A stretch of DNA of 64,000 nucleotides, taken from the NCBI GenBank assembly GCA_951406725.2, contig OX597834.1:6820001-6884000 (forward strand), written 5' to 3'. Positions 2,321 through 56,350 of the stretch are shown here, one piece after another (position 1 is the first letter of the stretch; each line of letters opens with the position of its first letter). The notes beneath the pieces were generated by a model, which was not told the origin of the DNA, searched no databases, and saw only the letters and a program-made list of their open reading frames with translations. The translations under genes and the position numbers were made by a program. Source of the stretch: Octopus vulgaris. Its lineage: Eukaryota.

Positions 2321-2464
2321 TTTATATATATATACATATATTTAAAAACATAAGAGATGACCTTAATAGGACATCTGACTCACTAGAAAGAGCAGCTAAA
2401 CTCCAAACCACTAATAGTTGTAATTCTGAAAGGGAAAGAGAAATAAAAACGTTTGCCCTATCTT

Positions 2465-2554
2465 TCCCTTGGACTATGCATAGTTTCGGCAATCTTTTGT
2501 AAATAAAATAAAAATATTTTACTTTACAATTGGCGTTGCCATCTTCAGCAGGAA
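2465..2554 (-). ncRNA. Type I hammerhead ribozyme motif, canonical core, GUC site, extended stem II
   Basis: Minus strand: UUCCUG CUGAAGA u GGCAA [14-bp A/U hairpin] UUGCC GAA ACUAUGCAUAGU C CAAGGGA. Predicted cleavage between 2472 and 2471. Confidence 0.8.
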
Positions 2555-3109: not shown

Positions 3110-3280
3110 CATATATATGATGGGCTTCTTTCAGTTTTCATCTACCAAATCTGCTCACAAGGCTTTGGTCAACCCGAGGCCATAGTAGAAGACACATGCC
3201 CAAGGTGCCACGCAGAGCGACTGAACCCGGAACCATGTGGTTCATGAGCAAGCTACTTACCACACAGCCACTCCTACACC
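2788..3280 (-). mobile_element. SINE family A with expanded internal (TA)n
   Basis: Reverse complement of the 70-488 element. Confidence 0.88.
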
Positions 3281-3507
3281 TATATATATATAACATACAC
3301 ACATGCACAAACACTCAGATGCATATATATGCATAAATGTGTGTATGTTTGTGTGTCTGTACAGCATTTCTATGACATTTCCTTATTTTCCTTCCCTTAA
3401 AGATGTCCACGTCAGCTGATGTTCCTCATATTTTCTCCTATCTTTTACTACTTCTCCCTTATGCAAACACTTGCTACACCCCTTCACCCTTTCATTTACA
3501 TTACTGC

Positions 3508-55483: not shown

Positions 55484-56350
55484 CTACGAGGAGGTACCCA
55501 AAAGAAACCAGAATTTTGCAATATTACTTTATTCACCTAGTTTTACATGATTGCTCTGTTCTTACTTTCAAAGTATTCTCAATTTGAAGCAATGCATTGA
55601 TTGGCTGAGTTGCATTTCCCACTATTTGAAGCAGTGCTGGGACTCTTTCAAAGTGATTCCTTTTAACATCTCTGCCATTTTTTTTCCTTCATCTCATCCA
55701 CATCTGAAAATTCTGTGGTCACCAGTGATGCCCTTTGATAAAAGCTCCGGATCAACTTCCAAATGTTCTTTCTGTTCCTGACATGCATTCAGTTGTGGTT
55801 GCTTTTGATCTTTTATGAGCAGGTGAGGTACAAATTTTGCTGCAGCTCTTTTCATTCATGATTCCTCACTCAAAATTCGTTGGCAGAAGTTCCAGAACAC
55901 ACCAGTCATACCAAGAAGTCCATCAATTGTTCTGTGATGGCTCTCCAAGATCAGTTCGTGAATTTTTGTGATATTTTCATTCGTTTGGGAGGTTGATGGC
56001 CATCATGAATGAGGTTGGTCTTCAAGCAACAGGTGACCATTCCTAAAATACCTTTTGCTCATTACAGCAGTCTTGTTAGCTGTTTAAAGCATAACAATTC
56101 TTTCGGCTGCTTTTTCCCCAGCAGAAAACAGAATTTTTTGGAAGCACACAGATCCTTTTTTTCAGCCGTCACAAAAATCAACAAACAGGGGAGAAGCACT
56201 GTAAAACAAATATGTACCATGTGGTAGTAGGACTACACTCAATGGTTGGTCAGCAGACTGATGCCTGAAGGTTACATCAAATGGCTTGTAGTGGCAGAAG
56301 CCTGAACTACAACAGGTTTGTCCCACAAACTTTTGCGTAACCCTTTGCAT
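55484..56350 (-). mobile_element. Internally deleted mariner transposon
   Basis: Degenerate TIRs TACGAGGAGGTACCCAAAAG and CTTTTGCGTAACCCTTTGCA. Transposase remnants KFCFLLGK, PSTSQTNENI, and MKRAAAKFVPHLL..DQK...DPELLSKGITGD. Confidence 0.85.

Follow-up and report, generated by a model that had tools for sequence, protein, structure and literature searches.

A hammerhead motif in Octopus vulgaris probably belongs to a worn copy of a non-coding repeat with a Penelope-like insertion footprint

The stretch of Octopus vulgaris DNA analyzed here, 64 kb long and referred to as the window, carries on its minus strand a sequence that resembles a hammerhead ribozyme (Table 1). We sought whether the motif is a genuine hammerhead, whether this particular copy is likely to work, and how it came to lie at this genomic location.

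Table 1. Features at and around the hammerhead motif of the window
Feature	Positions	Strand	Basis
Type I hammerhead motif	2554-2462	minus	sequence, own scanner, alignment of copies
Stem I, 5' strand (UUCCUG)	2549-2554	minus	sequence
Core C3-A9, CUGAAGA (2548-2542), and extra U (2541) between A9 and G10.1	2541-2548	minus	sequence
Stem II: GGCAA (2540-2536) with UUGCC (2492-2488), internal loop and 14-bp A/U hairpin (2528-2498)	2488-2540	minus	
G12-A13-A14 (GAAA, 2487-2484) and 12-nt palindromic stem III (2484-2473)	2473-2487	minus	
Predicted cleavage site, GUC/C, with C17 at 2472	2471-2472	minus	placed from hammerhead consensus
Stem I, 3' strand	starts at 2471	minus	
Private 2-nt insertion after A1.2, bulging stem I	2468-2469	minus	1 of 97 copies
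5'-truncated single copy of ~0.95 unit, starting at unit position ~165, crossing the cut and stopping at the short 3' end (~135-142)	2342-2785	minus	nhmmer, E 6.5e-130
(TA)-rich run at the 3' end of the element, likely insertion target	2323-2341		sequence
Separate younger insertion: 3'-terminal ~118 nt of the terminal repeat of an autonomous Penelope-like element, with the 3' half of another hammerhead	2205-2323	minus	

The nucleotides required of a hammerhead (C3 U4 G5 A6 N7 G8 A9, G12 A13 A14, A15.1-U16.1 and H17) are all present in the motif. The initial annotation, made from the letters alone, had described a complete canonical hammerhead, and its core nucleotides, GUC site, GGCAA/UUGCC stem II, internal loop, 14-bp A/U hairpin and 12-nt palindrome were all read again in the sequence; the word canonical is not strictly correct, given the extra U between A9 and G10.1. 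Under a strict type I definition, our own scanner returned this motif as the sole match in the window, against 0.05 matches per dinucleotide-shuffled window (200 shuffles). A search of the window against Rfam gave no match at the gathering score, and at E ≤ 10 it gave chance matches that did not include a hammerhead family, probably because the long stem II kept the motif from being recognized. A looser motif at 11545-11471 is no rarer than chance allows, such motifs turning up 0.4 times per shuffled window. A second hammerhead formed by pairing GGUCAU with AUGACC across the TA run (2360-2300) was rejected, its 3' half belonging to a separate young fragment of a Penelope-like element (PLE).

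Stems I and II both contain internal loops in the predicted folds. The palindrome of stem III can form a 4-bp hairpin as a monomer or a 12-bp duplex in a dimer; the isolated 12-mer is predicted to be unstable as a hairpin (0 kcal/mol) and to form a self-duplex at -15.9 kcal/mol. These predicted energies are compatible with cleavage as a dimer, as described for newt and PLE motifs in the accessible part of PMC4209133, and a 4-bp monomer stem would also be possible.

The motif is part of a dispersed repeat. When the genome (2.8 Gb in 227 contigs) was searched, window positions 2785-2323 gave 72 matches from the 40 candidates scored among 2206. The hammerhead had been said to occur once, which holds for the strict match in the window, but the genome contains at least 184 copies: an exact 26-mer across the cut site was found 184 times and one just past the cut 322 times (control, 0 in both cases). 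The difference between these two counts is explained by 5' truncation of copies. A larger family sharing only the 3' part, suggested by a tenfold depth excess past the cut, was rejected, as the exact counts differ by far less than tenfold. By a rough estimate that assumes about 3.5% decay, the family totals some 460 hammerheads and 800 segments. The unit is closed head-to-tail, the end of a match running back into its start. Five natural cut-to-cut monomers are 465-486 nt long, with a GC content of 32-36% and 63-68% of their nucleotides paired; no ATG frame longer than 50 aa was found in them, and as circles they fold better than shuffled sequences (z -3.2 to -5.8, 30 shuffles each). More than one unit is present in 31 of 109 loci, with a maximum of 2.47 units; these loci comprise the 30 best matches and 79 with the exact cut-site 26-mer, a non-random set biased toward long copies and copies with the cut site.

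Four subfamilies are separated by 15-46 differences per ~465 positions. Among the 59 copies long enough to score, divergence from their own consensus ranges from 1 to 15% (medians 2.5-4.2%), and no young cohort of identical copies was seen, so the main-family branch looks dormant. Sister subfamilies, recovered as 356 matches to a pattern that excludes the main family, are homologous over the whole unit (nhmmer E down to 1e-68); the tandem spacing at sister loci L233-L252 is about 474-490 bp. None of the papers listed for octopus hammerheads or non-autonomous octopus Penelope elements describes this family in its title or abstract, and the family may already be catalogued in repeat libraries under an anonymous repeat name.

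If the hammerhead fold is maintained by selection, then its homologs should retain the core and exchange paired nucleotides together. A total of 97 hammerheads were aligned, about two thirds of which had been picked for an exact 3' half. The core is intact in 83 of the 97, and in 25 of the 31 that make up the less biased remainder. Position N7 is A, U or C in 63, 18 and 16 copies, respectively, where U can derive from C via CpG decay, and the remaining six core columns are fixed in 93-97 copies. In the main family, 95.9% of 1949 stem cells are paired; sliding the partners lowers this to 45% or less. One stem I pair is U-A in 61 and C-G in 27 of 96 distinct rows, a switch that is probably a single event inherited by many copies, and the A/U hairpin of stem II differs in length among subfamilies. 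The sister subfamilies have different sequences in stems I and II with the pairing kept (the core is readable in 15 of 21 sites): the first stem I pair has changed from G-C to A-U, and stem II appears as GACG/CGUC and GGUGU/ACACC. Furthermore, the stem III palindrome in the sisters is switched on both sides (315 copies, against 12 of the one mismatched form counted), and no mixed palindrome occurs among 100 sister matches listed. An RNAalifold consensus of the 97 copies recovers stem III only.

Loss of the core in homologs was among the findings that the initial annotation had listed as counting against its reading; instead, the homologs keep the core and covary in all three stems, and the motif is therefore a genuine hammerhead. 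Since all three stems change sequence but stay paired, and the palindrome switches by paired changes, the fold is likely to have been selected. In 13 of the 15 readable sister cores, U4 is replaced by C (core CCGAUGA), a change for which lower activity in vitro has been reported together with viroid infectivity (PMC3088659). A sister lineage at L249 has A10.1-U11.1 with the normal U4.

The condition of the window copy is a separate matter. It is the sole match to the unit in the window (nhmmer) and differs by 4.4% from its subfamily consensus, the subfamily median being 4.2%. The bulge in stem I that had been reported is present, but it results from the 2-nt insertion private to this copy, in which stem I is bulged after 2 bp; elsewhere in the family, stem I is 6 bp long and perfectly paired. 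The CCUUG/CAAGG pairing, once offered as an alternative form of stem I, extends to CCUUGG/CCAAGG and takes in C17 and C1.1, and so belongs to an inactive fold. The same helix appears in the minimum-energy fold of 2440-2580, which is more stable than expected (z -2.7) but inactive, with the helix spanning the cut site and stem III open. Forcing the active fold on this copy costs a predicted 4.8 kcal/mol, where undamaged members of the same subfamily need about 1, and by this cost, calculated from secondary structure only, it ranks 49th of 79. The view that it is the best candidate for an active ribozyme is not supported by these comparisons; from the predicted folds, the window copy is probably an inert, worn relic. 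With a single hammerhead, whose stem I is bulged, and with no inverted partner arm, it could make at most one cut and would release no unit.

SINE-like repeats of very high copy number, putatively tRNA-SINEs, flank the 5' end of the element (2786-2960 and 3115-3290), with similar copies at ~70-480. A hairpin just past the cut, at unit positions 3-38 (about 2469-2434 of the window, minus strand), can tie up the 3' strand of stem I when the unit is folded as a circle in the predictions, and might act as an off-switch for the circle.

The ends of the copies were then compared. In 97 of the 109 loci, the 3' ends cluster around unit positions 121-160 or 221-260, and none falls at the cut, while the 5' ends are scattered. 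The two 3'-end sites, both AT-rich, are some 140 and 240 nt beyond the cut. Across 160 loci, 176 of the 194 3' ends of the two main classes are followed by a TA run. These loci include 66 head-to-head pairs, of which 23 have an arm ending elsewhere and 43 are classifiable; one short and one long end are combined in 42 of the 43 (P = 5e-12 against 50:50), and the ~100-nt tail of the long arm is on one arm only. Junctions lie inside (TA)n runs, so that target-site duplications, which in non-LTR retrozymes exceed 4 bp when they occur, are unreadable. The 5' truncation, inverted arm, one-sided tail and microsatellite target are traits of PLE-type insertion, the one-sided tail having been described for PLEs (10.1101/2021.04.23.441226). 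With endonuclease-bearing PLEs, as far as the accessible part of that source describes them, the octopus insertions share 5' truncation, partial tandems, an inverted 5'-truncated arm, a tail at one end and the bias toward (TA)n; they differ in a tail of about 100 nt instead of 30-40 and in having no coding capacity.

Candidate enzymes are present. GIY-YIG elements are abundant in the genome, some with intact 781-aa RT+GIY-YIG frames that contain the CxxxxCxxC linker of the Neptune/Nematis type. By nhmmer, the unit has no match in 54 PLE loci (of thousands), PLE ORF pieces occur near 9 of 140 family loci at variable distances and orientations, and an RT+GIY-YIG ORF flanked by the unit was found neither in the family loci nor in the 54 PLE loci compared. 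Given no similarity to these PLE loci and no fixed place for the ORF pieces, the unit is, as judged from genomic sequence, non-autonomous.

Hammerheads also occur in PLEs of this genome. The younger insertion at 2205-2323 is 99% identical to 39 other places scored (965 candidates); in L158 a GIY-YIG frame lies upstream, and L164 contains a fragment of a related PLE frame. In this family (L157-L165), the hammerhead of full copies is minimal: its core is the U3-A8 variant UUGAAAA, stem II has 4 bp and stem III is a palindromic CCGG. Inverted insertions of this family have a 31-nt tail on one arm. In a young PLE family (L141-L149, L155), the intact 781-aa RT+GIY-YIG ORF is preceded and overlapped by a frame that reaches 479 aa; imperfect tandem repeats lie on the 3' side, and ORF1 may have a U3-A8 hammerhead (UUGAUAA) upstream of it. 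At the 5' junction of L004, a short inverted piece links the element to part of the 3' repeat region of this 781-aa PLE, possibly as a single template-switch chimera or as two side-by-side insertions. Beside GIY-YIG loci at L039, L052, L142 and L147 there are further type I hammerhead motifs, unrelated to these and with a palindromic stem III. Targets of the (TA)n kind are common to several hammerhead-bearing repeat families.

Which RNA served as template can be approached through the copies that reach the cut. Among the first 100 listed copies of a 26-mer at +42, 66 continue upstream across the cut, so most templates would have had an intact junction, either uncut or rejoined. The 5' ends are 2.4 times denser from +41 to +1 than upstream. 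Four ends among 100 copies lie at +1/+2, where 0.8-1.3 are expected (P = 0.008-0.047); the unrelated positions +14/+15 also have four ends, a hairpin lies just past the cut, microhomology blurs the junctions, and two of the four ends at +1/+2 are inversion junctions with microhomology. This is a weak hint that some templates may have begun at the cut, which would reflect past cleavage. Units within one insertion are usually near-closest relatives (0-8 of the 94-95 other copies are closer) and diverge by 1.7-6.4%, and at L138 two of three hammerheads share changes that are absent from the third. The pattern at L138 and these differences are better explained by a heterogeneous linear multimer, or by subsequent conversion, than by a single circle. 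The choice between a circular and a linear multimeric template is close to balanced, with the circle very slightly preferred. The family is also present in three large sequencing runs of unrecorded kind, under three organism codes, where none of the contigs listed bridges the window junctions. Contigs of runs presumed to be RNA contain pieces of many different copies, many of them continuing into unrelated sequence, and show no starts, ends or circles.

Taken together, these observations give us good confidence that the hammerhead is part of a worn, 5'-truncated copy of a non-coding unit of ~475 nt, a non-LTR retrozyme copied into (TA)n by the RT and endonuclease of a PLE, and that this copy is probably inert. 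On such a model, a tandem source locus would be transcribed, and successive hammerheads would cut, possibly as dimers via the palindrome, thereby freeing RNAs of unit length, some of which would be religated into circles. The PLE endonuclease would nick a (TA)n tract, and the nicked ends would prime reverse transcription at the two AT-rich sites, with synthesis passing a rejoined or uncut junction and sometimes making more than one round.

The remaining explanations can be weighed against this one. A chance look-alike in an AT-rich repeat might be suspected from the lack of an Rfam match, the RNAalifold result and the inactive unconstrained fold, yet the rarity of strict matches in shuffled windows and the paired changes in all three stems across subfamilies leave it hardly any credit, and the covariation refutes it. 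The initial annotation had also suggested that the hammerhead, if intronic, could cut a host pre-mRNA. Co-option of this kind would draw on the fully intact core and on an active fold that can still be forced; an intact core, however, is ordinary for the family, and the damaging private insertion goes with average divergence. No exon exceeds the Pfam cut-off among 132 frames of at least 70 aa, a screen that short exons would escape. A co-opted intronic hammerhead is expected as a single, orthologously conserved genic copy, whereas hundreds of copies with average decay were found. The motif came with a mobile repeat, and although an intronic position is possible, cutting of a host transcript is very improbable. 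A Pfam match to RAMP below the cut-off at 56009-56224 (plus strand; E 4e-4) is probably due to chance.

Two further alternatives keep the link to PLEs. The unit might be the terminal repeat (pLTR) of an autonomous PLE with an unsampled coding body, its copies being truncated stumps, which would leave the same insertion footprint. Consistently, the accessible part of PMC4209133 lists an extra base after A9, a large helix II and a palindromic helix III among PLE motifs, and a vertebrate survey derives retrozymes from pLTRs (10.64898/2026.07.22.740005, in part). On the other hand, the sequence upstream of 31 of 109 copies is the unit itself and in none leads into a shared ORF, and neither the scattered PLE ORF pieces nor the 54 PLE loci provide the missing body. 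The stump reading is thus improbable and largely refuted, while descent of the retrozyme from a pLTR is possible. The other alternative concerns a single inferred step, with the element and enzymes unchanged: the template would be an uncut linear multimeric transcript, without a circle, and the hammerhead would only occasionally trim the precursor. Arrays are short, most copies cross the cut site, units differ within L138 and L065, U4C fixed in expanding sister lineages suggests that slow cleavage is tolerated, and eight of nine Xenopus dimers were uncleaved in vitro (10.64898/2026.07.22.740005, in part). Against it, units of one insertion are at or near being mutual closest relatives, as a circle predicts, although a recently duplicated source gives the same pattern, and circles have been demonstrated for coral, mussel and axolotl retrozymes (PMC7229834, accessible part). 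We consider this linear route quite plausible, at somewhat less than an even chance. More tentative still is a fuller reading of the retrozyme model, in which the genomic copies of a long-lived cephalopod retrozyme document its entire cycle: the two ends of a broken (TA)n tract would serve a PLE enzyme as primers on a circular RNA, at two fixed sites 100 nt apart, a minority of templates would end exactly at the cut, and the hammerhead would be tuned to slow, dimer-only cleavage, the palindrome being kept via paired changes and the normally damaging U4C being fixed in sisters that nevertheless reached hundreds of copies.

How, then, does the octopus family compare with known systems? Like the animal non-LTR retrozymes described in the accessible parts of PMC7229834 and 10.64898/2026.07.22.740005, its unit is non-coding, low in GC, self-paired and arranged head-to-tail with one type I hammerhead per unit, and many dispersed monomers coexist with autonomous PLEs. 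Its unit length is above the 150-450 bp given in the former and inside the 51-972 bp of the latter survey. The octopus family differs in arrays that do not exceed 2.5 units among those seen, in a stem II domain that spans 50-75 nt and includes an internal loop, and in a 4-bp stem III. At the level of sequence, the family would qualify as a non-LTR retrozyme, the window copy itself being less than one unit. Cephalopods are absent from the sampling described in the accessible parts of both sources, and the octopus family is known from genomic sequence alone. With the PLE terminal-repeat hammerheads of PMC4209133 (accessible part) it shares the extra base between 9 and 10.1 (in the subfamily of the window copy), G10.1-C11.1, the enlarged helix II and a palindromic, dimer-suited helix III. 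Compared with the minimal hammerheads of PLEs in that source, helix III is not minimal, having 4 bp and a tetraloop, helix I has 6 bp and no ORF is attached, which places the octopus hammerhead closer to the palindromic-helix variants described there.

Mobilization of retrozymes by PLEs has been proposed, with no junctions shown in the accessible parts of PMC7229834 and 10.64898/2026.07.22.740005. The octopus insertions bear a clear PLE footprint and the genome encodes intact candidate enzymes, so that a trans-mobilization assay is feasible. In addition, the subfamily series offers natural hammerhead variants, with and without the extra base after A9, with U4C and with the switched palindrome, for the comparison of monomer and dimer cleavage. 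The significance of the family is modest. As for the window copy, which is probably inert, it is likely what remains of an RNA parasite of a known type and is unlikely to be a host-gene switch.
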